From the IMG/VR virus record IMGVR_UViG_2671180275_000001: a DNA stretch of 17,794 nucleotides, one strand, 5' to 3'. The notes beneath the pieces were generated by a model. The model did not search any database and was not told where the DNA came from. It saw only the letters and a program-made list of their open reading frames with translations. Made by a program: the position numbers and the translations under genes. Source of the DNA: a virus (Duplodnaviria; Heunggongvirae; Uroviricota; Caudoviricetes). This document shows, piece by piece, positions 12-16,388 of this stretch; position 1 is the stretch's first letter, and every line of letters begins with the position of its first letter.

Positions 12-248
12 TTACTTGACCACTACAGTCCACTGAAATGCACGGACGCCACCGTGCCGTTCCAGAAAGGCTTTTAAAGATGGGTGTTCACATTTACGAA
101 CACGTATCGTCACGCTGTAAGTCGACAACTGGTTATTCAGTCCCGCCGCACGACGCTGTTCATAACCATCGCCCAGCTTCACTGTCACCACTTTCGGCTC
201 TGATACCACATTCATATCCGGGCGCACTTTCCAGTGAAACGTCTCCAT
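12..248 (-). CDS. M: minor tail protein, lambda gpM-like (78 aa; shorter than lambda M)
   Basis: Translation METFHWKVRPDMNVVSEPKVVTVKLGDGYEQRRAAGLNNQLSTYSVTIRVRK...FLERHGG is collinear with lambda M (MKTFRWKVKPGMDVASVP...GDGYSQRAPAGLNANLKTYSVTL...FLEEHGG). ATG at 248-246 overlaps the TAA stop of the upstream tape measure gene. Stop at 12-14. Confidence 0.8.
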   Translation of the reverse strand: METFHWKVRPDMNVVSEPKVVTVKLGDGYEQRRAAGLNNQLSTYSVTIRVRKCEHPSLKAFLERHGGVRAFQWTVVVK

Positions 249-3200
249 TACCGATATGCTCCACTTAACCGACCACCATCACGGGCCTGCTGTTGCATAA
301 AGTCCGCTGCCGCTTTTTTCCCGAGGTCATAAACCGCCTTCAGGGCAGCCGGACCTATCTGCCCGTTCGTGCCATCGTTATTGATCTCGATGTTGTACTG
401 CGGGGAAAACATCGCCATACCTGAACCCCCAATATCCGCCACAACCCCCAGCTTACCGTCAGCACCACGACGCAATGGCAGAATGGCTTCAGGTCCCGCT
501 TCCCCCATCACACCCGCGCCTTTTGCAAAAGCAAAAAACGTCGGACGGTTAACCACCGTGCCACTGTAACGACTCAAATCAGCAGACTGATAAATCCCCC
601 CATTGGCATTCAGGGAAAGGCTGCTGAGATCAAATCCCAGTACACTGCCAATCCCTTTTATCGATTTCATCATGGTTGCCTGCGCCAGGATTTTCGCCAT
701 ATCTGACAGCACAGAAGAGGTGAAGGATTTGAAATTGAGTTTGCCGGTAGTGACAAAAGTTGCCAGGCCATTTCCCATGTTGCTGAAGGCTGACGAGAAC
801 ACCTGTTCTGCTGTTTCTGCCGTATTATCTGCATCCACGGTAAAATCCTGAAATGCACGCAGGACTCCGTTTTTCCAGTTACCCTGCACAACTTCAAGCT
901 GTTGCCAGTAACGGCGATTCTCATTCAGTTGTCGGTTCAGGCTCTCCGTCAGCGCCTGCTCGGCCTTTCTGTAGTCATCCGTGTTATATGTCCCTTTCTG
1001 CTCACTATCCCGCCTCAACTGCTCCAGCTGTTGCTGGTATTTCTGGCGAAGACTCAGTTGTACCTGATATCGCTGTCGCTGCTGATCACCCATACCCACC
1101 GTGGCGATATCCAGGTCATGTTGCTGACGCTGAGCGCGCTCTTCTTCAGCCAGTTGACTGGTCAGCTGAATTGTTTTTTTCTTCAGCTCGTTGAGTGCCG
1201 TCTGTTTCTGAAGCTCCTGCTGTTTTACATCCAGCAGCGTCAGTGCCTGAATCAGTTCATCTTTACGGGCCAGCACACTCTTTTCATCTGCCGTAAGTTT
1301 TTTCCCGTCCAGGTCGCTGATGCGCTGCTGCAGAGCCAGAAGCTGTTTATGCGCTTCTGTCATCCTTTCCGTGGCAATGCCTGCTGACTGTCTGGCAGCA
1401 GCAATCTGTCCTTCCACCTGTGCCTGTTGCTGACTGTACTGCAGCAATAACCGGGTGGCCTCATCATTAAGGGTTTCGCGTGTTTTTTTCTTACCGGATG
1501 CCAGGGCTTTCTCGTAACGTTCATTTTCACGTTGTATCGCCGCATCCCTGACAGCCTGATCGGCGTACTGCATGGCATTAATACGCGCAATTTCACGCTG
1601 ATGTCGTGCTGCTTCCGTTTCATTCATCCGGTTCAGTGCAGCATTTTCAGCATTACGGCGTTTCTGTTGCTCCTGATAATTCCGCTCTGCCTGCTCTTTT
1701 GCATCCTGCAAATCCTTCTGGCGTTTTTTCTCCTGAAGATCGTTAAGACGCTGCTGATCGTATTCAACCTGAGAAGATGATGCCGTCCAGGGGAGTCTTT
1801 TCGCCCGCGACACTTTCTCCTGTAAAGCGGCAATCTGTTCATCCAGCGAGTCTTCACGACCAATATTCATGGCCGCATCCCAGAAACGACTCCACAAATC
1901 AGACAGATACTTCAGCGTACTGCCAAGCGCATTGAGGTTATTATCAATATCCGCAGTACGCCGACCGGTTTCCTCTGCCAGTGCAGACATGGCTATCCGT
2001 GCAGCATCACTGGACCGCCCCTGCTCCCCAAGGACGCGTATCTGCTCAAGCTGAGTGGCAGTAAGAAAATGCAGCTCATTGTCCAGAGCCTTCGCGGCAT
2101 TTACAGGATCATCCTTCAGCCGCTTAAACTGATTTATGGTATCGCTGACCGACTGGCCAACCGATCGCTCCATCTGTGCGGCAGCTCTCGCCACCATACC
2201 GATATCGTTTCCACGAAATGCACCACTCCCCACCACCTGAGCCAGCGCACCGGCTGCAGCATGTTGCGTGATACCATTCCCGGAAATAGCACGACTGAGC
2301 GTCCACAGCTGCCCGGCAGTGACTCCGGCATAATGCCCCGTCAGCGACAACTGGCGGTTAAATTCTTCCCCCTCCTTCTGACCGTCATACCAGGCTTTAC
2401 CCAGACCATAGACGGCCGCGGCAATACCGCCAATAACCCCGCCAAGCATCATGCCTTTCGGTGACATCAGTGTGTCTATCCATCCGGCACGGTTAGCCAG
2501 CGTTATCCCGGATCCCCTCAGCGCCCCTAAATTGCCGCGGGCCAGTTCACCTATCAGAACGCCTATCTCCTGGCGGGCTGATGCACTTTTCAGACCCAGC
2601 GAATGCGTGGCTTTTCCTGCCTGCTCCATTTTGCGGATATACACTTCTGCAGCACTGCTTACCCCCAGCTGGGCTGCCTTAGCACGAAGCAACTCAGAAG
2701 ATGAAAGATTCAGGCGGGTTGCCTGCTCTTTAAGCTGACGGATAAACGCCACTTTCTGTCGGGTAGCCTCTTCCTCAGCCTGTGTAAGAACACGGGTTTT
2801 CGCAGTAACCTCAGAAATCAGCGCCAGATAATCCTGCTGACCAATCCCGCCACTGTTTCTGGCCTGTCGGATCTGCTGCTGAATACGCTGTAATTCCTGC
2901 AGCCCCGCACTGGCCTGTTTCACACTGTCAATCTGACGATAAAACGCAGCAGCCGCTTTATCCTGAACCTCCGCCAGAGCCATGGCCTGCGCCTGTTCCT
3001 CGCGCATTTTCTGGCTCAGTGCCTCCATGCGCTGGCGGGTTTTCTCCACCTCGCGGGCCATGCGTTCATGAGCCTGTGCGTTCTTCTCCACCGTCTGCGC
3101 ATGGACGGATGCGGCTGTTGCAGCCGAAGAAGCTGCCTGCGTTGTCTGCCGGGCGGCCTGAGTCTGACGCTCCATAAAACGCTGCATACGGGCAGAAGAC

Positions 3201-3313
3201 CGTTCTGCATCGCTGGCTGCACCATTCAGAAGGTTTTTGATACGGGGAATTTCATTTTTAAACTCTGCCGCATCAATCCCCAAATCAATGACCAGGTTGG
3301 CTATCTGGTCCAT
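248..3313 (-). CDS. H: tail tape measure protein, lambda gpH-like (1021 aa from ATG at 3313)
   Basis: Long coiled-coil-rich ORF; C-terminus INNDGTNGQIGPAALKAVYDLGKK...DGGRLSGAYR matches the lambda H C-terminus. Start placed at internal ATG (MDQIANLVIDLG) preceded by GGAGGT about 7 nt upstream; the track ORF begins at an upstream TTG. Confidence 0.9.
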   Translation of the reverse strand: MDQIANLVIDLGIDAAEFKNEIPRIKNLLNGAASDAERSSARMQRFMERQTQAARQTTQAASSAATAASVHAQTVEKNAQAHERMAREVEKTRQRMEALSQKMREEQAQAMALAEVQDKAAAAFYRQIDSVKQASAGLQELQRIQQQIRQARNSGGIGQQDYLALISEVTAKTRVLTQAEEEATRQKVAFIRQLKEQATRLNLSSSELLRAKAAQLGVSSAAEVYIRKMEQAGKATHSLGLKSASARQEIGVLIGELARGNLGALRGSGITLANRAGWIDTLMSPKGMMLGGVIGGIAAAVYGLGKAWYDGQKEGEEFNRQLSLTGHYAGVTAGQLWTLSRAISGNGITQHAAAGALAQVVGSGAFRGNDIGMVARAAAQMERSVGQSVSDTINQFKRLKDDPVNAAKALDNELHFLTATQLEQIRVLGEQGRSSDAARIAMSALAEETGRRTADIDNNLNALGSTLKYLSDLWSRFWDAAMNIGREDSLDEQIAALQEKVSRAKRLPWTASSSQVEYDQQRLNDLQEKKRQKDLQDAKEQAERNYQEQQKRRNAENAALNRMNETEAARHQREIARINAMQYADQAVRDAAIQRENERYEKALASGKKKTRETLNDEATRLLLQYSQQQAQVEGQIAAARQSAGIATERMTEAHKQLLALQQRISDLDGKKLTADEKSVLARKDELIQALTLLDVKQQELQKQTALNELKKKTIQLTSQLAEEERAQRQQHDLDIATVGMGDQQRQRYQVQLSLRQKYQQQLEQLRRDSEQKGTYNTDDYRKAEQALTESLNRQLNENRRYWQQLEVVQGNWKNGVLRAFQDFTVDADNTAETAEQVFSSAFSNMGNGLATFVTTGKLNFKSFTSSVLSDMAKILAQATMMKSIKGIGSVLGFDLSSLSLNANGGIYQSADLSRYSGTVVNRPTFFAFAKGAGVMGEAGPEAILPLRRGADGKLGVVADIGGSGMAMFSPQYNIEINNDGTNGQIGPAALKAVYDLGKKAAADFMQQQARDGGRLSGAYR

Positions 3314-3635
3314 AACGCACACCTCCGGAAATACCTTCCCCAAGATGCATCAGTTCTTCGTCCGTTCGCTCCGGTATCCCGTTCTCTTCCGGTAAAAGGC
3401 TGAAATCAGCCACCGCAGCATCACTGCTGCCGGACACCATTCTCACGATCAATGCCTTCAGCGAGGCAAACTGCGCATCCATCCACACATCACTGAAGCT
3501 CTGCATCCGGAAATAATCGCCCCACTCACCAAGCTCAGTGGCCGACATTTCCGACAGCATCCGCCGCCAGTCTGCCCGCCGGAACTCCCGGGCAAGCCGC
3601 ATGACAAACTGCATTTCCCGCGTCAGGACTTTTCC
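3285..3635 (-). CDS. T: tail assembly chaperone, T-frame part of a G-T fusion made by programmed -1 frameshift (lambda gpT-like)
   Basis: ORF in the -1 frame relative to G, open upstream through the 3-prime end of G with no stop; position between G and H as in lambda. The standalone ATG at 3614 is probably not the functional start. Confidence 0.65.
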   Translation of the reverse strand, partial: GKVLTREMQFVMRLAREFRRADWRRMLSEMSATELGEWGDYFRMQSFSDVWMDAQFASLKALIVRMVSGSSDAAVADFSLLPEENGIPERTDEELMHLGEGISGGVRYGPDSQPGH

Positions 3636-4009
3636 GGCGTCAGCGCCTCATGCTCATCATCCACGGCATTATCAATGGCCCCCATACCGCTCAGCGACAG
3701 AACCATCTCCGCCCCCGCACCCAGGGCATCATACGACCATGTTGTAATAACGGATGCGCAAAGCGTCTCTACATCCTTAGACTGATCCGCATTCCACAGT
3801 GAGCGGGAAACCAGCCAGGCATTGATATCCATCCCCATCCGCAGAAAAGCAATCTGTCGTTCAGCCTCCGGCAGTTCTCCCTCCCCGGCATCAAACTTTG
3901 CCGTTCGCTGCTGAACAAACGTCAGATATTCAATTCTCTGCAGCCCGGACAGCTCACTGAGCACCACGGACTGTTTTTCATAATTAAACGTGTCCTGTTT
4001 CAGAAACAT
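3623..4009 (-). CDS. G: tail assembly chaperone, lambda gpG-like
   Basis: MFLKQDTFNYEKQSVVLSELSGLQRIEYL resembles lambda G N-terminus MFLKTESFEHNGVTVTLSELSALQRIEHL. GGAG lies 6 nt upstream of the ATG at 4009; the track ORF starts at an upstream TTG. Confidence 0.8.
   Translation of the reverse strand: MFLKQDTFNYEKQSVVLSELSGLQRIEYLTFVQQRTAKFDAGEGELPEAERQIAFLRMGMDINAWLVSRSLWNADQSKDVETLCASVITTWSYDALGAGAEMVLSLSGMGAIDNAVDDEHEALTPEKS
3629..3635 (-). other. candidate -1 ribosomal frameshift (slippery) site GGAAAAG at the end of G
   Basis: Minus-strand sequence ...ACG CCG GAA AAG TCC TGA in the G frame. Slipping back 1 nt at G-GAA-AAG puts tRNA-Lys on AAA and continues in the T frame (..GKVLTREMQFVMRL). 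Lambda uses G-GGA-AAG at the equivalent position. Confidence 0.5.
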
Positions 4010-4025
4010 CATGTTCTCCACCTGC

Positions 4026-4049
4026 AAAAAAGCCCCGCATAACCGGGGC
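4026..4049 (-). terminator. intrinsic terminator-like hairpin between V and G
   Basis: Minus strand reads GCCCCG-GTTATG-CGGGGC followed by TTTTTT, 20-45 nt downstream of the V stop codon. Confidence 0.5.
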
Positions 4050-4069: not shown

Positions 4070-4813
4070 TTAACCTGCTGCGCTGACAGTCACCGCAGTC
4101 ACAGCCACAAAATTCCCGTCAGCGGTCATGCCCACAATGCTGACACTGCCCTGCTTCACGCCTTTTACCGTGGCCACAAGTCCGTTCAGGGTAACCGTGG
4201 CAGTCTGTGGATCTGACGAATGCACACTGATCGCTTTGTCACTGGCTCCGTCAGGTTTTACTGTAAAGGTCAGCGTGGTGGTTGCTCCCACTTTTACACT
4301 GGCAGACGCCGGTGATACTGTCAGCCCGGTAACGCTCACGGTTTCAGTGCCTTCCTCTGCCAGATACGGACGCCCCACACCGCTGATTTTCACAGTGCGG
4401 GTCATCACGTCTTTTGAGGCAATGGTTTTACCCAGTGAGCTCAGCCAGCCACGGAAAACATCAACAGTGCCGTTGGGATATTTGATACGAAACGCGCAGA
4501 CTTCACCGGAGTCGAACAACTGAACCAGTTTTTTCTGCCCGCTGTCACCCGGACGCCAGGCCAACGTCGCCGAAGTATCACCAACGGATTTCTGCCCCTG
4601 GGTTGTCGTTTTCCAGTCTGCATCTTCATCATCGAGATAAGTGTCATCTTCTGCATCAGCGGTCATTTCGCCAGGTTGCAGATCCTTCACCATCGCAAGA
4701 CGCAGCCAGTCAGTGTCCGACAAAGGGTTCGCAAACGCATCGCCGTTGCCGGTATACATCCAGAACGTCGTCCCCGCACCTTTCGTCTTTGCCAGTGGAT
4801 TTGGTGTGGTCAT
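4070..4813 (-). CDS. V: major tail protein, lambda gpV-like, with C-terminal Ig-like (Big_2-type) domain
   Basis: MTTPNPLAKTKGAGTTFWMYTGNGDAFANPLSDTDW...FRGWLSSLGK is collinear with lambda V ([36 protein letters not shown]...FRGWVSSIGK). C-terminal TVSPASASVKVGATTTLTFTVKP block is Ig-like. AAGGAGGT lies 5 nt upstream of the ATG at 4813. Confidence 0.92.
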   Translation of the reverse strand: MTTPNPLAKTKGAGTTFWMYTGNGDAFANPLSDTDWLRLAMVKDLQPGEMTADAEDDTYLDDEDADWKTTTQGQKSVGDTSATLAWRPGDSGQKKLVQLFDSGEVCAFRIKYPNGTVDVFRGWLSSLGKTIASKDVMTRTVKISGVGRPYLAEEGTETVSVTGLTVSPASASVKVGATTTLTFTVKPDGASDKAISVHSSDPQTATVTLNGLVATVKGVKQGSVSIVGMTADGNFVAVTAVTVSAAG

Positions 4814-6489: not shown

Positions 6490-8448
6490 TTACGCCGTAC
6501 ATTTCACCAGACCGCGGTGATCAACTGGCGCGACACCGGCGTCAATACGCACTTTCGTTGTCACGCCATCCACACTGAAGCCCTCCATCTGATCAATATA
6601 TGGCGTATCCACACCGTTGAGATAAGCCACTTCAATCGTATCGGAGCCTTTGGACGCAGCCAGGTAGAAGGTGGTCTGGCTGTTATCATCAAGACGAGGC
6701 TCTGCAATAACGGTCGCAAAATCTTTCACCGGGTTAATAATACCTGCGTTAATGTCAGCCCCCTTGACACTTGAGGAGCGAATGACCTGGTTAGCAACAG
6801 ACTCCATCGCCGTCGGTACCAGTACGAACGCAGGACGAATATTCAGATGACGCTCCCCCTCTTTCTGAACGCGCATCAACTGGCGGGCTTTATCCAGCGA
6901 TGCCACGTCCATTGCAGCGCTCTCCAGTACGTTTGCATGTTTCGCTTTATCGAACAGACTTACATTATCTGTGGAGATTTTCGGGTTAGACGTCAGAATG
7001 GCATAAACCAGATCGGCAATGGTGGATTTCGCCGCACGGCCCAGCTTCATCGGGACATCGGTCAGCATATTCAGATCATCATTGATAATGGCCTGACGGG
7101 TGATACTGAACAGCTCGCCATAGGTCGCCAGTGCAATAGTGGCCTGTTTATCTCCGGTGGTGACGTATTTATATTCCGCCCCTTCACGCACCTGACGCAG
7201 AGCACTGAAGCCCCCCATACCCACACGATGGGCAATTTTAAAATCAGACAACTGACCTTTCCGCGTCCACTGTTCATAGGTTTCAGGAGCATCTTCCCAG
7301 CCCTGCAGAATGGCTTTGTTCGCAACATCCAGCAGAATATTACCGAAGTCAGACGTACTGTGTGTGAACGCCGCACCGACCATCTGCATCGGGTTATAAC
7401 TGGAAACCCCAATACCCCGTTCAGTCAGTGACATACGGGCATATTCACGCAGGGTCATCCCGTTGTAGACATTATCACGTTCGGTTTTTTCAAATCCGGC
7501 ACGCGCCATCAGCGCCTGGCGGATCCCGTCCCCCACAAAATTACCGTTACCGGCATAAATATGAGCCGGGGTATTTTTATTGGATGGCGTGGACTCGCGC
7601 CCCATCTCGTTCAACAGCTTTTCGCGGGCCTGCTCCAGCGAACATTCAGGATCGGCAAGACACTGAGCCTGCAGAGTCTGATAACGCCCGCCAAACATGG
7701 CAAACAGATCATTAATACCGTTTACACGCGCTTTTTGCTCTGCCAGTACCTGCGCACGGATACTGTTTTCATCCACCACGGGTGCTGCTGCCTGCACTGG
7801 CGTCCGGGAGGCTGCAGGTTCATCATCCTGTACGCGTGGAGCACTGTTGCGTGGCGGAGTAATCATGTTTCGAATGGATTCCGGCATCTTTTTAAATTCC
7901 TCTGTACGTTTTGACTGAATACATGCCATTGCCTTAACGGCTGGCGTTACCTGATCAGCAAATCCATGTGCCAGACATTCGGCACCGGACATCCAGGTCT
8001 CATCCGCCAGCATGGCAGCAATTTCATCGGTGGTTTTCCCGGTTTTCTGTGCATAAGCGGGTAACAGAACCGCCTCAACTTTATCGAGCAGGTCGGCATA
8101 GGTGCGCATGTCCTCCGCATCACCGCCCGTAAAGCCAAATGGTTTATGAATCATCATGAAAGTGTTTTCCGGCATAATGACCGGGTTTCCCACCATCGCA
8201 ATGACCGACGCCATTGACGCCGCCACACCGTCGACATAAACGGTAATGGACGCACCATGTGTTTTCAGCGCATTAAAAATGGCGATGCCTTCAAAGACAT
8301 CGCCACCCGGTGAATTAATATGGAGATTAATGTGGGTGATATCGCCCAGTGCATTCAGATCACTGATAAACTGCTTCGCTGTAACACCCCAGAAACCAAT
8401 CTCGTCATAAATATAAATATCCGCGTCACTCTGGTGACCAGCCTGCAT
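6490..8448 (-). CDS. fused prohead protease (ClpP-like) / major capsid protein (HK97 fold), 652 aa
   Basis: N-terminus has ClpP-type motifs (IYDEIG, SPGGD, GVAASMAS, MMIHKPFG); C-terminal half has HK97-type capsid blocks (PEGAEYKY, FSITRQAIINDDL, TDTIEVAYLNG, KVRIDAGVA). Start set to the first ATG after the portal stop (MQAGHQSD...); the 739-aa track ORF would overlap the portal by about 250 nt. Confidence 0.9.
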   Translation of the reverse strand: MQAGHQSDADIYIYDEIGFWGVTAKQFISDLNALGDITHINLHINSPGGDVFEGIAIFNALKTHGASITVYVDGVAASMASVIAMVGNPVIMPENTFMMIHKPFGFTGGDAEDMRTYADLLDKVEAVLLPAYAQKTGKTTDEIAAMLADETWMSGAECLAHGFADQVTPAVKAMACIQSKRTEEFKKMPESIRNMITPPRNSAPRVQDDEPAASRTPVQAAAPVVDENSIRAQVLAEQKARVNGINDLFAMFGGRYQTLQAQCLADPECSLEQAREKLLNEMGRESTPSNKNTPAHIYAGNGNFVGDGIRQALMARAGFEKTERDNVYNGMTLREYARMSLTERGIGVSSYNPMQMVGAAFTHSTSDFGNILLDVANKAILQGWEDAPETYEQWTRKGQLSDFKIAHRVGMGGFSALRQVREGAEYKYVTTGDKQATIALATYGELFSITRQAIINDDLNMLTDVPMKLGRAAKSTIADLVYAILTSNPKISTDNVSLFDKAKHANVLESAAMDVASLDKARQLMRVQKEGERHLNIRPAFVLVPTAMESVANQVIRSSSVKGADINAGIINPVKDFATVIAEPRLDDNSQTTFYLAASKGSDTIEVAYLNGVDTPYIDQMEGFSVDGVTTKVRIDAGVAPVDHRGLVKCTA

Positions 8449-8461
8449 CCTGAACCAGGAA

Positions 8462-9970
8462 TTATTCTTCGGACTGGTCGTCGGTGTGCTGCGGCTCCTG
8501 TCGTTTCGTTGCGGCACTGCTGCCTCCTTTATCACTGGCCGGATCGGTATCAAATACCAGATCCAGCTTGCGGTTTTCATCAATTTCGGCCTTGCGCCGA
8601 CGTTTGACATCATCCGGATTACGACCACCAGCACGTACCCAGTCTGATTCTGTCGCCGCTCCACCACGAATCTGGATTTTCCAGGCCTCAGCCTCCTTAA
8701 CAGGGTCAATCCACGGCATCACTGGTCCGGAATACACCGCGGTATACAGTGAAGAACGGTCAAGATCGCGGGGTAGCCTGATAACACCGGATGCCACAGC
8801 CTGTTTCAGCCAGGCACGATACATCGGGCGGGTGACGGCACCAATAAACCAGTCCTGCAGGATCAGGTAGCCATCAGTAGACTCAACCAGTTCCTGACGC
8901 TGGGCGCTGTAAGTGCCGTTATAGTTGCGTGCCGTACTGGAAAAACTCAGACGACTGCCCGCCGCCACGGCACGCAACTGACCATTACGAAAAGTTTCAA
9001 GGTTAGGATTGGGACGATCCGACTTCACCATTCCGATTTCTTCGCCGGGTTTCAGATCGTCGTAAATAATGCCTGGCTGAATGGTAAGCTCGCGTTCATT
9101 CTCCTTGCTGTCATTACCATCCGTTTCATAGCTCTGTCCGTCGCCTTTCCGGATGTACATCCCCAGAGCAGCGGCGATCCTTGCTGCAGTCAGCTCAGAA
9201 TCTTCATACTCTTTCAGGGCGCTGAGGCGGATCAGCACACCGGACAATAAAGACGTCCCGCGCATCTGGTGCAGACGTCGAACAAATTTAAGATGCAGCA
9301 TTCGCTCTGCATCCACTTCTTTGGTTTCCATCTGCCGTCCGGATACAGGACGACTTTTATACACCAGATATTTTTCGGGACGCCCCCAGTCATCAACAAA
9401 CACGCCCTGATTCAGCCTGTTGCTCTCATCACTGGTCATGGGAATAAAGTCCGGCTCGAGCGCCTCCAGCCAGAAATGAACACCGGCAGAAGGCGTCAGG
9501 CTGTTTATGCGCCCGGAAACCATCTGGGCAAACACCTCACCATCGCGCAGCCAGGTACGCAGCATCAGACGTTCCAGCATCGGACGGGTAAACTGCCCGG
9601 TGACTTCCGGACTGACAGACCATTCACTCCATCGGGTACGTATCTCCGCTGCCAGGTCACGGGCAATGGCACCATTGCGTAATACCGGATGTGGCTCGAC
9701 AATAATCCCGTTTTTCCCCACCACCCGTTCTTCCAGCTTGTCAAATACACCAATGACCAGATCGTGGTTGTTATCAAGGTAACGGGCCTGCTCACGTAAC
9801 GACACGGCCCCGTACTGGCTTAACTGGTCGGCAGTTCGGTTCTCCCGTCGGGCTTTGTGTGTCCGCGTCGTTTTTACGGCCTCATAAGCTTGGATCACCG
9901 CTCGGGAACGCAGCCTTGCCGCTTTCCATCCTGGTGAAAAAACGCCAATCACATCATCAAGAATTGCCAT
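8462..9970 (-). CDS. B: portal protein, lambda gpB-like
   Basis: 502-aa ORF from MAILDDVIGVFSPGW with GAGG 5 nt upstream. Position between the W-like gene and the protease/capsid gene; length and overall composition resemble lambda B (533 aa). ATG overlaps the W-like stop (TGATG). Confidence 0.88.
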   Translation of the reverse strand: MAILDDVIGVFSPGWKAARLRSRAVIQAYEAVKTTRTHKARRENRTADQLSQYGAVSLREQARYLDNNHDLVIGVFDKLEERVVGKNGIIVEPHPVLRNGAIARDLAAEIRTRWSEWSVSPEVTGQFTRPMLERLMLRTWLRDGEVFAQMVSGRINSLTPSAGVHFWLEALEPDFIPMTSDESNRLNQGVFVDDWGRPEKYLVYKSRPVSGRQMETKEVDAERMLHLKFVRRLHQMRGTSLLSGVLIRLSALKEYEDSELTAARIAAALGMYIRKGDGQSYETDGNDSKENERELTIQPGIIYDDLKPGEEIGMVKSDRPNPNLETFRNGQLRAVAAGSRLSFSSTARNYNGTYSAQRQELVESTDGYLILQDWFIGAVTRPMYRAWLKQAVASGVIRLPRDLDRSSLYTAVYSGPVMPWIDPVKEAEAWKIQIRGGAATESDWVRAGGRNPDDVKRRRKAEIDENRKLDLVFDTDPASDKGGSSAATKRQEPQHTDDQSEE

Positions 9971-10182
9971 CAGAACCTCGCCAGCCGGTACCCGGGATGC
10001 CCCCGTCGTCGTGTAATCAGAGCCGCAAGGCGGCGCTCCCACTCCTGCCGCCCCTGCCGGATCTCAGATAAGTTTTCCATGGTCATCTGCTGACCATTAA
10101 AAGTGACGGATTTTCCGTCCAGCACTGCCATTTCAGCTTCCGTATAACGCTGAATCATGGCTTCAATATCATTCTGATTCAT
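9970..10182 (-). CDS. W: head-tail joining protein, lambda gpW-like
   Basis: 70-aa ORF (MNQNDIEAMIQRYTEAEMAVLDGKSVTF...RRRGHPGY). Lambda W is about 68 aa and ends ...QRRRGPAGFYV. ATGA overlap with the terminase stop, as for lambda A-W. GGAGG lies 6 nt upstream. Confidence 0.6.
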   Translation of the reverse strand: MNQNDIEAMIQRYTEAEMAVLDGKSVTFNGQQMTMENLSEIRQGRQEWERRLAALITRRRGHPGYRLARF

Positions 10183-11291
10183 AACCATCCTCCGGAAGTC
10201 AGCCAGGGGTTAACATCGTCAGTTACTGTTTTCTTCCGTTTTTGTTTTTTAACAGGCGTGGATACCGGTTCCGGTGTGGGTGACGGTTCGGTACTGTCCG
10301 GGACACACTCCAGCCAGGTTTCCCGGCTCGCCCACTCCGGTGCATCCGGCCAGCGGATCTTTTCGTATCCATGCAGAATGACCAGAGCCTCGGCATACAC
10401 CATCAGGTCAAAAGCTTCGTTGGCACCGCGACCCGGCTTACTCCATTTCCCGTCACTGCTCCGCTCTTCATACGTCAGTTCGTCGTAAAACCAGCTCCCC
10501 AGCCAGTCAGGGAAATGCACATAGCCGGGACCTGGCGAGTCACGCCATAACGCGTTATTCACCCTGTCTTTCAGGGCATCCGTCTGAAGAAGCCAGAGCG
10601 GTACATCACCTGCGGCCTGCGCCCGTCGGCCCGTTCGTCCGGTGTTATCAGGGAATGTACGGGTGATCAGTTTTGCGCGCCGGATGCTGTCGCCCTTAAA
10701 CAGGTAAATACGTTTACCAAGGCCATCACGACGGCAACGACGCCAGAATTTATAGGCATTATCAGTGACCCCGTCTTCACCGCCGGAGTCCACCGCCATT
10801 GCCATCAGTCGCATTTGTTGAGAAGGATCGGAGGCCAGCGGCCAGCTTTTATGAAAAACATCCGTCAGCAGGACATCCCAGTCTTCCGGATAGCTGGCCG
10901 GATCAATTCGCTGGCTCTCCCCGTCGCTGTCACCGCGCAATGACTGCGTGATGTTGTAACGATCAATAATCCAGCGTTCGCCACGGCTGCCATAGCCCGT
11001 TACCTGAACCACAAAACGGCGATGACGTCCCGCCTGCACATCCACTGTCGCCACAAGGAAATTAACGCCATCCGGCACACTGCGGGAAGGAACTGGCTCT
11101 GCCCGCTGCTCAAGCAATTCACTTTTTCGTTGCTCCATGCTGGCGCGGGGAAGATAAGGTAATCCCCAGTCGGTATTGATAACCGTCTTGAGTGTCTCTT
11201 CACTTCCGGTTGTCTCGTATTCCTGTTCTGCAGTAAGCAGTTTGTAAACGAGTTGCGAGAGTGTCTGATAAGCAGCTGCCGGCCCCTCCAT
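10179..11291 (-). CDS. A: terminase large subunit, gpA family, C-terminal portion only (5-prime truncated; probable pseudogene)
   Basis: 370-aa ORF matching the C-terminal part of lambda gpA (LVATVDVQ vs LTAGIDSQ; AVDSGG vs WDTGG; NEAFDLMVYAEAL vs NEALDCFVYALAA). Frame is closed by a stop 11 codons upstream of the ATG; no SD; upstream DNA is AT-rich and non-coding. No Walker-A N-terminal domain. Confidence 0.8.
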   Translation of the reverse strand: MEGPAAAYQTLSQLVYKLLTAEQEYETTGSEETLKTVINTDWGLPYLPRASMEQRKSELLEQRAEPVPSRSVPDGVNFLVATVDVQAGRHRRFVVQVTGYGSRGERWIIDRYNITQSLRGDSDGESQRIDPASYPEDWDVLLTDVFHKSWPLASDPSQQMRLMAMAVDSGGEDGVTDNAYKFWRRCRRDGLGKRIYLFKGDSIRRAKLITRTFPDNTGRTGRRAQAAGDVPLWLLQTDALKDRVNNALWRDSPGPGYVHFPDWLGSWFYDELTYEERSSDGKWSKPGRGANEAFDLMVYAEALVILHGYEKIRWPDAPEWASRETWLECVPDSTEPSPTPEPVSTPVKKQKRKKTVTDDVNPWLTSGGWL

Positions 11292-11313
11292 CCAGGAAGA
11301 AGTAAATAAAAGG

Positions 11314-11345
11314 TAACTAAATGATTATAAATAGTTATTTAGTTA
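11314..11345. repeat. AT-rich inverted repeat TAACTAAAT-N14-ATTTAGTTA next to the terminase truncation point
   Basis: Perfect 9-bp arms at about 11314-11322 and 11337-11345, within 25 bp of the ATG at 11291. Confidence 0.4.
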
Positions 11346-11659
11346 TACTACCTCCTACATAGTCCAAGATTTAGTACCTGCTTAAACGATAAAAAAAGAA
11401 ACAAAAGCAGCAATATTAATTAAAAGCTGAATGATGATGGGGGTACGCTTGTGTCTGATTCCGGTAACGCGGTGGATTAATCCCAGTATTTCGGCTTCTG
11501 TCATTGTGCCCCCATCGCGCTGGTGAAGAAAACAAGCTCAGATTTTTTGTAAAGAATCTGTCACGCTAAAAGATGTCGAACAAAAAATAACCTTCTTCAT
11601 CATCTTTTTCACATCAAAATAATTAAAAACAATCACTTACGCACATGATGATGATGACG

Positions 11660-11760
11660 ATAAAATCAAAAAAATGCGCTTTTTTCCGCGCCGCCCGCCC
11701 CGTGTTCAGGCCCACCCCACCAGGAGGACCCGCAAAAAAGGCGGCTGGTGCCGCCTTGTT
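11660..11760 (-). repeat. conserved ~100-bp element, copy A (terminator plus conserved distal block)
   Basis: Aligns at roughly 85% identity with 14198-14299 (ATAAAATCAAAAAATGCGC...TTTTTCCGCGCC...CCGCCCCGTG...CAGGCC...ACCCCACCAGGAG...AAAAAAG + hairpin). Identity is by eye. Confidence 0.6.
11733..11756 (-). terminator. intrinsic terminator after the second protease/capsid gene
   Basis: Minus strand GGCGG-CACCAG-CCGCC followed by TTTTTT, starting 6 nt after the stop at 11762. Confidence 0.6.
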
Positions 11761-11761
11761 G

Positions 11762-13651
11762 TCATAGTGAATCTGTCCCGCCTGATTTGACCATACCGCG
11801 ATAATCCAGAGCTGCCACACCTGCATCAATACGGACTTTCCAGGCCACGCCGTCAACGATAAAACCTTCCTGCTGTTCAAGGTAAGGCTCGTCATTGCCA
11901 TCAAGATAAGCCACCTCGATTGTGTCAGTTCCCTGTGCGGAAAGCATGTACCATTGTTTTTCGCTGATATCATCAAGGCGGGGATCGACGATGATATCAA
12001 GTAGCTTGTGGTACGGGTTAAAGATCCCGCTGTTTTTATCAGCCCCGAAAGGTGCGGTTGAGTTAATCATCTGCAACGCGCGATCTTCCAGTGCTGCCGG
12101 AACTAAAAGGAATTTAGGCGCAATATTCAGCACTTCGCCATTTTTGTCCTTCTGTGTGCGCATCAGGTGACGTGCTGCACTAAGTCCCGATGTTGTCAGT
12201 CCTGCTTCAATCAGGTTGCTGTGTTTTTTGTCAAACAGCGTTATTCCGTCAGAAAGTTTTACGTTGCCTGTAAGCACCAGATTAACCAGATTTCCCACCG
12301 TTCTTGATGCTGCACGGCCCATAGCCATTGGCACCGTTGATAACTGATCAAGGTCATCATTGATTATCGCCTGGCGGGTAATGCTGAAAATATTCCCGTA
12401 AGTAGCCAGCGCGATGGGTTCACCGCGATCGCTGGTGGTGATGTATTTATATTCTGCCCCTTCCGGCACTTTGCTTAACGTAGAGAAACCATTCAGGCCA
12501 ACGCGGCGGGCTTCACGAAAGTTTGAAAGGGAACCTTTTTTCGTCCACTGGCGGAATGTTTCGCCGCTGTGCTCCCAGCCTGCAAGCACTGATTTTTCAG
12601 CGCCACCAGCAAGGATATCGGTAAAATCGCTGCTGCTGTGGTTGAATGCCGCGTTTACTATCTGCGAGCGTGTGCCGTAGCTGCCCGTGCTTATACCACG
12701 ATGGGTTAATGATGCCTGTGCCATATCGAAAAGACTCATCATGGCGTAAGGATTACCGCGTTCGGCCCGTTCGTGACCAAGACGCGCATTAAGCCCCTGA
12801 CGCATGGCATCGCCAGTTATATTGCCGTTATCCGTGTACGCGTAGTAAAGATTTGCGGGGGTGGTTTTGTTTGTTGGCGTTGATTCTTTACCCATAGCGA
12901 GTAAAAGGCGTTCGCGTGCATTCTCAACGCTACATTCTGAATCCGCAAGACAACTTATAGCCAGGTCGTTATATCTTCCGTTGAAGGTGCCAAACAATTC
13001 ACGGATTCCGTTAAGTCGTTCCTGTTCGCCACTGCCAGTTTTCTGGCTGATCATGCTTTTAATTTTTTCCGGCATATTTGAAAAATCTCCGATTCGTTTT
13101 GATTCAATTCGGGCCATTGCTGTAATCGCGGGTATAACCTCATCTGCGAAGCCGTTAGCCTTACACTCATTGCCATCCATCCAGGTTTCCGCCTCCATCA
13201 TGGCGGTGATTTCCTGTTTGCTCCTGCCCGTTCTTCCGGCGTAGGTTTCTGCCATCGTGTCGCCCAGCTTGTCCATCAGGTCAGCAAAGCGGCGAACGTC
13301 GCCCGACACTCCGGCAGTAACACCACGGGGGGTATGTATCATCATCATCGCGTTTTCAGGCATAACGATGTGATCGCCACACATGGCAATAAACGAGGCC
13401 ATAGAAGCCGCCATGCCCTCAATGTGTACAATTTTCTTTGCCGGATGATTTTTCAGGGCGTTATAGATAGCCAGCCCTTCAAAGATGTCGCCACCAGGTG
13501 AATGGATGCGAAGATGGATTTCAGACGCATTACCACACGCGTTGATCTCGTCAGTAAGTGCCGATGCTTTTACACCGTACCCGCCGATCTCGTCATAAAT
13601 GCGCACATAGACAACATCTGCCATAGCCTTAATGGAAAACCATGTTTTCAT
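11762..13651 (-). CDS. second fused ClpP-like protease / HK97-fold major capsid protein (629 aa), divergent paralogue of 6490..8448
   Basis: Same domain order and motifs (RIYDEIG, HSPGGD, GMAASMAS, MMMIHTPRG, PEGAEYKY, FSITRQAIINDDL, TDTIEVAYLDG, KVRIDAGVA). AGGAGA lies 6 nt upstream of the ATG at 13651, which overlaps the stop of the upstream small ORF (ATGA). Confidence 0.85.
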   Translation of the reverse strand: MKTWFSIKAMADVVYVRIYDEIGGYGVKASALTDEINACGNASEIHLRIHSPGGDIFEGLAIYNALKNHPAKKIVHIEGMAASMASFIAMCGDHIVMPENAMMMIHTPRGVTAGVSGDVRRFADLMDKLGDTMAETYAGRTGRSKQEITAMMEAETWMDGNECKANGFADEVIPAITAMARIESKRIGDFSNMPEKIKSMISQKTGSGEQERLNGIRELFGTFNGRYNDLAISCLADSECSVENARERLLLAMGKESTPTNKTTPANLYYAYTDNGNITGDAMRQGLNARLGHERAERGNPYAMMSLFDMAQASLTHRGISTGSYGTRSQIVNAAFNHSSSDFTDILAGGAEKSVLAGWEHSGETFRQWTKKGSLSNFREARRVGLNGFSTLSKVPEGAEYKYITTSDRGEPIALATYGNIFSITRQAIINDDLDQLSTVPMAMGRAASRTVGNLVNLVLTGNVKLSDGITLFDKKHSNLIEAGLTTSGLSAARHLMRTQKDKNGEVLNIAPKFLLVPAALEDRALQMINSTAPFGADKNSGIFNPYHKLLDIIVDPRLDDISEKQWYMLSAQGTDTIEVAYLDGNDEPYLEQQEGFIVDGVAWKVRIDAGVAALDYRGMVKSGGTDSL

Positions 13652-14785: not shown

Positions 14786-14990
14786 CTCCTCACTCATGCT
14801 CACTTTTACACCTCACTTTTTAAAGCGTCTCGCTTCGTCTCACTTGATATTTTTTGATGCTTTATGTGTGTGTTTCATAAGGATTTTTTTACTCCTCACT
14901 TTTGAGCATGTATACAGGTGAGAAAGTGAGTAATCGTGTTAATATTTTGTAAAAACCTCACCATTACTCACTTTTGCTACTCACTTTTTA
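14786..14990. repeat. iteron-like direct repeats (CTCACTTTT) flanking an AT-rich spacer; candidate replication origin
   Basis: At least six direct copies of (C)TCACTTTT plus one inverted copy (GTGAGAAAGTGAG) around an AT-rich stretch at about 14846-14892, immediately 3-prime of the helicase-like gene. Confidence 0.5.
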
Positions 14991-16388
14991 CAGTGGTCCT
15001 ACATCATCACCATCAATGTAAATCACGGCGTCTTTTTCCAGTTTGGCTAACCATCGCCGCATATTTTTCACGTCATACCCAAGCCGTTTCATGTCATCAC
15101 GTAACAGCGGGATCGTGCACTTGTCGCCGTTCTGTGTGCGTGAACGGATGCACCCCCATAGTGCGGTATGGTTTTCCGTCTTGTTGCCTGCCTCCTCGAT
15201 GCGTTCCAGTTCAACGGGAGGGCGCGGCTTATCCACCACCACCAGCGACGTGATTAACTCCCCGTCAGCGTCGGTAAACAGCTCCACCACGCGTAAGTCA
15301 TATGCGGCTTCTTTGAGTTCCTCCGCGTCCTTCATTTTGGTGCATGAGATAACCAGCGCTTCGCTTCCTGCGTCCTCCCTGCGTATCCGGTATTCAGCAT
15401 CCAGCGAAGCACGAAATGCACTGGAACCGCGCGCGCCTTTCGTCTCATCCTTGCCGGAATGGTGAACCACCAGCACCGTGGCCCCTGTGCGTCGTTTCAG
15501 TTCGTCACAACCACGGATAAACGCCCCCATATCACGGGAATCATTTTCATCATTCCCACCAAAGCAACGCGCCAGCGTATCCAGAATAATCATGCGTACA
15601 GGTTTACCCGTTTCCCGCTCCACCTGACGGGCAGCGATAACCATTTCATCAACATCAAGCGGGGCAGCCGGAAAGATGGGGCGGTTTACCAGATACAGAT
15701 TTTTCACCTGCTCATCGTGCACAACCTCCCAGGCTTTTACACGACGCGGAACACCTATACCGCCTTCACCAACCACATAGAGAACCGCACCATGTGCAAC
15801 CCTGCGGCCTCCCCACTGGCGACCAGTGGCAACATGGCACGCCCACGATCCGGCAAGGAATGATTTATAGGACCCGCTAGCCCCGTATATGCTGCACAGC
15901 GATACCGCCGGAATAATCCCCTTAACCACGTAATCAAGTTGTGTGTCGTATCCGGCAGATCCCACGCTCATTGGTAGCGTGGTTTTTCGCTGGTGGTGTT
16001 TTTCTTCCCCTGGCTTTTTCCCCCGCTCCCGTTCCAGATATTCGCGCCAGTTCTCCCGCTTCTGGCTGTGCATCCCTTCGGGGTAATAATTCGCATCAGT
16101 TACACCCGCCGCCGCCAGCTTGTGCGCAATGGCATTAATATTTGATGGCCTGATGTGGCCTGCCTTGTACAGCCGGACACAATAGCGCCCCTCGTCGATG
16201 ATTCTCAGGTCTGCCAGTTCATCCAGTTGATCATCAGCCAGCACAACGGGAGGCACATTATCGCCAGCCAGTCGCCCGTCCTGTTCCTGCCACTGTTTCG
16301 CATGTGCCCAGGCATCACTACCCGCAAAAATAATGACTTCGGTCATCTTGTCGTAAGGCTGTTTTTTTAAGTTCGGTGCGCTTTTCAT
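14988..16388 (-). CDS. replication protein: RepA/DnaB-like RecA-fold P-loop helicase (AAA_25-like) with an N-terminal domain of unclear type
   Basis: Walker A YGASGSYKSF and Walker B MIILDTLARCFGGNDEND, with LVVHHSGKDETKGARGSSAF downstream, as in RepA-type hexameric helicases. ATGA overlap with the upstream 99-aa ORF. Confidence 0.75.
   Translation of the reverse strand: MKSAPNLKKQPYDKMTEVIIFAGSDAWAHAKQWQEQDGRLAGDNVPPVVLADDQLDELADLRIIDEGRYCVRLYKAGHIRPSNINAIAHKLAAAGVTDANYYPEGMHSQKRENWREYLERERGKKPGEEKHHQRKTTLPMSVGSAGYDTQLDYVVKGIIPAVSLCSIYGASGSYKSFLAGSWACHVATGRQWGGRRVAHGAVLYVVGEGGIGVPRRVKAWEVVHDEQVKNLYLVNRPIFPAAPLDVDEMVIAARQVERETGKPVRMIILDTLARCFGGNDENDSRDMGAFIRGCDELKRRTGATVLVVHHSGKDETKGARGSSAFRASLDAEYRIRREDAGSEALVISCTKMKDAEELKEAAYDLRVVELFTDADGELITSLVVVDKPRPPVELERIEEAGNKTENHTALWGCIRSRTQNGDKCTIPLLRDDMKRLGYDVKNMRRWLAKLEKDAVIYIDGDDVGPL

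Follow-up and report, generated by a model that had tools for sequence, protein, structure and literature searches.

A predicted programmed −1 frameshift site of known kind, conserved at the G-T junction of an mEp460-like Escherichia coli prophage

Frameshifting between the tail genes G and T of phage lambda, and with it a ratio of about 30:1, is essential and widely conserved (PMC5009743). Several GenBank records of related phages carry traces of the same arrangement. In N15, a misc_feature at 10027..10033 is described as a "slippery sequence for -1 translational frameshift", and these seven nucleotides read GGAAAAG. The T homologue of Gifsy-2 is recorded as part of a G+G' frameshift hybrid, and HK225 has a product named "tail assembly protein GT". 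The records of N15, Gifsy-2 and HK225 thus indicate that the G-T frameshift and the GGAAAAG motif have already been recognised in homologues, apparently by prediction. A search of open-access full texts returned no relevant paper on GGAAAAG as a phage slip site, and the PRFect supplement contained nothing relevant.

Two other groups of frameshift sites are useful for comparison. At the dnaX site of E. coli, A_AAA_AAG, the single E. coli tRNA-Lys slips from AAG to AAA in the A site of a fully cognate heptamer; a strong Shine-Dalgarno (SD)-like element lies 10 nt upstream of the heptamer, a strong hairpin lies downstream, and the shift amounts to about 50%. The second group is formed by recognised intermediate slip sites, namely NNA_AAG hexamers and "G_GA"-type partial heptamers, with G_CGA_AAG of IS1222, A_CGA_AAG of Bacillus cdd and G_GAU_UUU of RNA viruses as examples in which the A site re-pairs perfectly and the P site partly (PMC5009743). 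These examples belong to IS elements, to a cellular gene or to viruses of eukaryotes, and the majority depend on a 3' structure. The tetramer A_AAG is the most shift-prone in E. coli; as a bare tetramer lacking any stimulator it gave 0.147% frameshifting in E. coli reporters, against a background of 0.112%, and 5.6% when a pseudoknot was present (PMC4066793). Since the bare tetramer remains so near to background, partial re-pairing in the P site or a stimulator is probably needed.

The window, by which we mean the whole stretch of 17,794 nt that was analysed (IMG/VR record IMGVR_UViG_2671180275_000001, Caudoviricetes), carries the genes V, G, T and H in the same order as lambda, all on the minus strand. 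Pfam matches place the G-T pair between a major tail tube gene and a tape measure gene. The major tail tube protein V (4813..4070; Phage_TTP_12, E = 5e-67, plus Big_2) is encoded upstream of G, and the tape measure protein H (3313..248; TMP_2, Tape_meas_lam_C and TMP_4) downstream of T. Gene G (4012..3623) encodes a tail assembly chaperone of 129 aa that matches PF06894 (Phage_TAC_2, E = 3.8e-40) over profile positions 1-123 of 126. It begins at ATG 4012, with GGAG just before it, and ends at TGA 3625..3623; where identical DNA is annotated in phages or in E. coli genomes, its product is labelled gpG or tail assembly chaperone G. The T frame, which is −1 relative to G, opens at 3647, stops at 3287..3285 and matches PF06223 (Phage_tail_T, E = 5e-15). 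At its end T is overlapped for 29 nt by H, if H starts at ATG 3313 as in the mEp460 annotation. Between V and G, an intrinsic-terminator-like hairpin, GCCCCGGTTATGCGGGGC, followed by TTTTTT, is found at 4049..4022 on the minus strand. Equivalents of this feature are annotated in mEp460, Ayreon, N15 and HK225, and it may cause G, T and H to be expressed less strongly than V.

A 901-nt segment spanning the V-G-T-H junction is 99-99.9% identical to mEp460, mEp460_ev081, PhiR55_1, Tritos and HannyBb, and 97.6-98.6% identical to cdtI and Ayreon. Among 5426 complete E. coli genomes, 1847 carry the junction at an identity of at least 95%; prophage Sp3 of O157:H7 Sakai is one example.

Direct reading and a script both show that the G and T frames overlap by 25 nt (3647..3623, minus strand). 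A TGA at 3650..3648 precedes the opening of the −1 frame, and the overlap closes with the stop codon of G, whose terminal codons are ACG CCG GAA AAG TCC TGA (3640..3623). The script identified the predicted slippery heptamer G_GAA_AAG (3635..3629, with the zero-frame codons GAA 3634..3632 and AAG 3631..3629) as the sole in-frame motif of the overlap that permits re-pairing of an A-site tRNA. No other slip site was found in the overlap, whose 25 nt include just one homopolymeric motif. The initial annotation had described the T frame as open through the end of G, with the slip just before the G stop, and had given the codon changes as AAG to AAA and GAA to GGA. Its coordinates are exact, and the codon arithmetic is correct on direct reading. 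The heptamer does not conform to X_XXY_YYZ, as positions 1-3 are not all alike; the A-site half, A_AAG, is canonical and the identity of the first two bases (N1 = N2) is kept. The window contains six copies of GGAAAAG where 2.7 would be expected, and a count of six was reached in 10 of 200 shuffles. The count by itself is statistically unremarkable, so the significance of the site must come from its frame, position and conservation.

Comparison with lambda shows homologous G and T proteins, with 34.8% identity over the fusion and the same Pfam families, and the slip at a homologous Xaa-Lys codon pair with T in the −1 frame. A single transition, from G to A at position 3, separates the heptamer from the G_GGA_AAG of lambda and places Glu where lambda has Gly; P-site re-pairing would accordingly be near-cognate in the window, whereas it is cognate in lambda. 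The amino acid context of the slip is also kept, reading ...EPVSAGK in lambda, ...EPVTAEK in N15 and ...EALTPEK in the window. Other differences lie in the surrounding lengths. The G stop follows the heptamer after one codon in the window and after five in lambda, the G/T overlap is 25 nt rather than 64 nt, and the T part contributes 114 residues after the slip as against 139. A closer match at the heptamer itself is seen in N15 (genes 14/15), HK225, mEp237, phi80, mEp213 and Gifsy-2, all of which have the identical GGAAAAG at the homologous position. Protein identity of these phages to the window is 37-55%, and their overlaps are mostly longer than that of the window. As a motif that deviates from X_XXY_YYZ is annotated as the slip site of N15 as well, strict canonicity is not required of members of the G/GT family.

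We searched phage records with the predicted 242-aa G-T fusion by using tblastn and obtained matches to 186 of them. All of the 60 matches listed were split into two pieces, apart from one partial match in Vibrio phage HY01, a pattern that fits the location of G and T in different frames. For a wider census, loci were taken from 18 diverse phages, N15, 80 IMG/VR records and 64 bacterial assemblies chosen as one genome per species. A motif-blind script placed the G/T overlap in 159 of 165 sequences (the fetched loci and the window junction), yielding 54 distinct overlaps. Counted as distinct sequences with no phylogenetic correction, and in proportions that are not unbiased for the family because the census was seeded with the window's own T sequence, these comprised GGAAAAG (41 overlaps), GGGAAAG (7; lambda, 21 and others), AAAAAAG (2; Stx phages), GGCAAAA (2), GGGAAAA (1) and CCCAAAA (1). 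Every one of the 54 overlaps has, at the homologous codon pair, a heptamer that allows A-site re-pairing, and N1 equals N2 in every one, whatever the type of heptamer. Alignment of homologous G-T junctions, which the initial annotation had proposed as a check, thus gives good support to its suggestion that the G/GT −1 shift of the lambda type has been kept, with G_GAA_AAG as its site. Its description of the heptamer as non-canonical holds as far as X_XXY_YYZ is concerned; the motif is no peculiarity, however, being the commonest form in the census (41 of 54) and annotated in N15.

Constancy of the heptamer extends to a position that the protein sequence leaves variable. The base 5' of the in-frame GAA AAG is G in all 41 distinct GGAAAAG junctions, and this G is supplied by six different codons for five amino acids (CCG, GCG, CTG, TTG, ACG and GTG). 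The chance of a constant first G is about 0.01, calculated as the product of the frequencies of G-ending codons in the same G genes, with one event per amino acid. A first G that is constant across such varied codons favours a slip of two tRNAs and disfavours a pure single-tRNA slip. Prophages bearing GGAAAAG were found in Escherichia, Salmonella (Gifsy-2), Citrobacter, Kosakonia, Kluyvera, Klebsiella, Enterobacter, Providencia, Sodalis and other hosts, and their homologues are just 37-66% identical to the window at the protein level.

Two minor groups of loci emerged from the census. In the loci L122, L154 (Providencia), L138, L108 and L110 the G stop follows the heptamer directly, as GAA AAG TAG, GGA AAA TAG or GCA AAA TAG. 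A slowly decoded stop codon in the A site could favour slippage of tRNA-Lys in the P site of these relatives, which would constitute a different sub-mechanism within the same family. Junctions identical to that of lambda (L140-L152) were recovered from assemblies labelled Kitasatospora, Neobacillus, Oceanobacillus, Leeuwenhoekiella, Enterococcus and others. They lie mostly on short, low-coverage contigs and are almost certainly contamination with lambda control or vector DNA, not real prophages.

Sequences on both sides of the heptamer were analysed for possible stimulators. The 69 nt that follow it (3628..3560) have a predicted minimum free energy of −24.2 kcal/mol, compared with a mean of −26.6 kcal/mol for shuffled sequences (z = +0.72). 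A second fold test, on 70-nt stretches of 33 relatives, gave z = +0.32 for the window and likewise no signal of a 3' structure there. The site in the window differs from the NNA_AAG and "G_GA" examples described above both in having no detectable 3' structure and in being located in a phage tail chaperone gene. A GC-rich hairpin was observed at about +34 to +70 nt past the heptamer in N15, phi80, lambda and many of the genome loci. Its arms correspond to conserved T codons, CTG-GCG-CG(N) (L-A-R) and TGG-CGC-GCC (W-R-A), and its z-scores, based on mononucleotide shuffles, are −2 to −3.5 in many relatives; in the window (3595..3560) it is weak and non-significant. Because this hairpin begins some 34 nt past the heptamer, it is too distant to be a classical frameshift stimulator, for which a hairpin or pseudoknot would be placed 5-9 nt downstream.

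Upstream, direct reading finds an SD-like GAGG at 3649..3646 (minus strand), 10 nt from the heptamer, which is the spacing of the dnaX element. GAGG with the 10-nt spacer also occurs in Gifsy-2 and in prophages of Leclercia, Phytobacter, Symbiopectobacterium and Ewingella, and is mostly absent from the other named phages that share the heptamer. In the mEp460-type allele that is most frequent, GAGGTG is spaced 8 nt from the heptamer. Of 49 distinct GGAAAAG contexts, 17 have an SD core 7-14 nt upstream, compared with a background of 9.3%, an enrichment that is confounded by shared ancestry; the element is missing from the N15, phi80 and lambda types. Hypothetically, the weak GAGG at −10 might act as an upstream frameshift stimulator. 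Compared with dnaX, which combines a fully cognate heptamer, a strong SD element and a hairpin, the site in the window has GAGG only and no hairpin, and a low rate of frameshifting would be expected.

We interpret the site as a programmed −1 ribosomal frameshift site that serves a tail assembly chaperone pair of the lambda type, in a lambdoid E. coli prophage resembling mEp460, and assign this reading a probability of about 0.8. Judged by sequence comparison, it is a conserved frameshift site of an already known kind. The anatomy, homology and conservation of the junction are observed, and from them we infer the slippage itself, its rate and the tRNA geometry, as follows. Most ribosomes would read G to its stop and produce the 129-aa chaperone. 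A small fraction would slip back by one base on G_GAA_AAG, with tRNA-Glu on GAA in the P site and tRNA-Lys on AAG in the A site. As in dnaX, tRNA-Lys would move from AAG to AAA and re-pair perfectly, while tRNA-Glu would move from GAA to GGA, where pairing is predicted to be near-cognate (C36-G, a central U35·G wobble and U34-A). Base 3629 would be read twice, and translation would continue in the T frame for 114 codons, from GTC 3629..3627 to GGG CAT and then the stop (3629..3285), to give a G-T fusion of 242 aa. By analogy with lambda, the fusion would hold the tape measure protein H through its G part and recruit the tail tube protein V through its T part.

More broadly, we suggest tentatively, at slightly less than even odds, that G_GAA_AAG and not the G_GGA_AAG of lambda is the predominant, selected G-T slip site across Enterobacterales; that slippage there involves two tRNAs, with a central G·U pair in the P site; and that GAGG(UG) 8-10 nt upstream assists the shift in one subclade, to which the window belongs. 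On this reading, pipelines would miss the slip site because it breaks the X_XXY_YYZ rule, and T would for that reason be annotated as a free-standing gene in 1847 of the 5426 complete E. coli genomes, or about one third. The consequences concern chiefly annotation and frameshift prediction, since T is misannotated as free-standing in very many E. coli genomes; our understanding of tail assembly is unchanged. The junctions compared represent a clear natural case of an A_AAG site at which P-site re-pairing would be near-cognate and yet the first base is strictly conserved. Models of −1 frameshifting, and tools restricted to X_XXY_YYZ, could usefully be tested on it.

How the slip occurs can be read in another way. 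The initial annotation had considered a weaker or single-tRNA slip site. A weakened variant is not supported, since the motif was the commonest in the census and its first base is conserved. In a single-tRNA slip, tRNA-Lys alone would shift, as in the NNA_AAG mechanism, and the tRNA-Glu in the P site would free the third base without re-pairing itself. Low-level −1 shifting does occur in bacteria on NNA_AAG hexamers such as CGA_AAG (PMC5009743), A_AAG is the best shifting tetramer (PMC4066793), and re-pairing of tRNA-Glu from GAA to GGA would be non-cognate. A single-tRNA slip would, however, leave the base 5' of GAA free, whereas G was observed there in 41 of 41 junctions across six codons, and the identity of N1 and N2 in all 54 junctions also argues against it. 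In addition, tetramers lacking a stimulator shift at about background level (PMC4066793), and the window has no downstream stimulator. We therefore regard a slip of tRNA-Lys alone as unlikely and favour the slip of both tRNAs. Slippage of RNA polymerase on the A run of the heptamer would be another way to make the fusion, and one to which we give next to no weight. A runs known to be prone to such slippage are considerably longer than the four A's present here. Moreover, it is the flanking G's that are conserved and not the length of the run, a pattern that fits tRNA re-pairing better than transcriptional slippage.

A further alternative is that no frameshift takes place and that T is a separate protein of 109 aa, translated from the ATG annotated as its start (3614..3612, minus strand; residue 7 of the T part), perhaps by termination and reinitiation after the G stop. 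With this ATG only 8 nt past the G stop, a degree of independent translation or reinitiation of T is conceivable in this lineage. The four records of the mEp460-type lineage that were opened (mEp460, Ayreon, PhiR55_1 and E. coli C5) all annotate T as an independent gene, with no ribosomal slippage; the start chosen is the equivalent of ATG 3614 in mEp460, PhiR55_1 and E. coli C5, and a later ATG in Ayreon. Alignment of the T parts points the other way. The series of invariant residues, E5, F8, L12-A13-R14-E15 and W21-R22, starts at the fifth residue past the slip, so that an invariant Glu and conserved positions upstream of ATG 3614 would fall into a non-coding spacer if T started there. The ATG is itself lineage-specific, its position being occupied by Leu or Ile in other lineages. 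The initial annotation had named an independent T start with a ribosome binding site in relatives as the finding that would speak against a fusion. No conserved start was found, and in five relatives (Gifsy-2, mEp213, phi80, Kp4865-4 and Enterobacter phage MStein) the T frame contains no ATG, GTG or TTG until 75 nt past the heptamer, where a start would delete the conserved T motif. The sole purine-rich stretch before ATG 3614, GGGAA, abuts the ATG directly, and this spacing is too close for anything but a poor ribosome binding site. Furthermore, the heptamer is conserved at synonymous positions, for which an independently translated T would have no need. We consider a free-standing T very improbable. 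Given that conserved T residues precede the annotated ATG and that a start codon is missing there from several relatives, the 242-aa fusion (128 aa from G and 114 aa from T) is most likely the sole form in which T is made, and ATG 3614 is probably a mere internal Met codon of GT. A last alternative concerns the window copy, which could be a silent relic, with neither G nor GT made in a productive cycle. The large terminase is represented by its nuclease domain only (10179..11291, minus strand, 370 aa, PF20454); E. coli C5 carries an intact homologue of 700 aa. This remnant abuts a second ClpP-protease/major-capsid fusion gene (11762..13651, minus strand), which is 51% identical to the copy at 6490..8709. 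Among complete E. coli genomes, 66 share this terminase-capsid junction, including O121:H19 and O111:H21, and the rearrangement at 10179..13651 suggests that the prophage is tandem, recombinant or defective. As the prophage is rearranged and its terminase truncated, the window copy may fail to be expressed during a productive cycle. The V-G-T-H DNA is, however, 99.9% identical to the deposited phage records mEp460_ev081 and PhiR55_1, and all the ORFs are intact. We judge a silent copy to be somewhat unlikely, though a serious possibility; it would bear on the expression of one copy and not on the nature of the predicted frameshift site. Upstream of the second capsid gene, 14988..16388 (minus strand) encodes a 466-aa protein with an AAA_25 domain (E = 9e-44).
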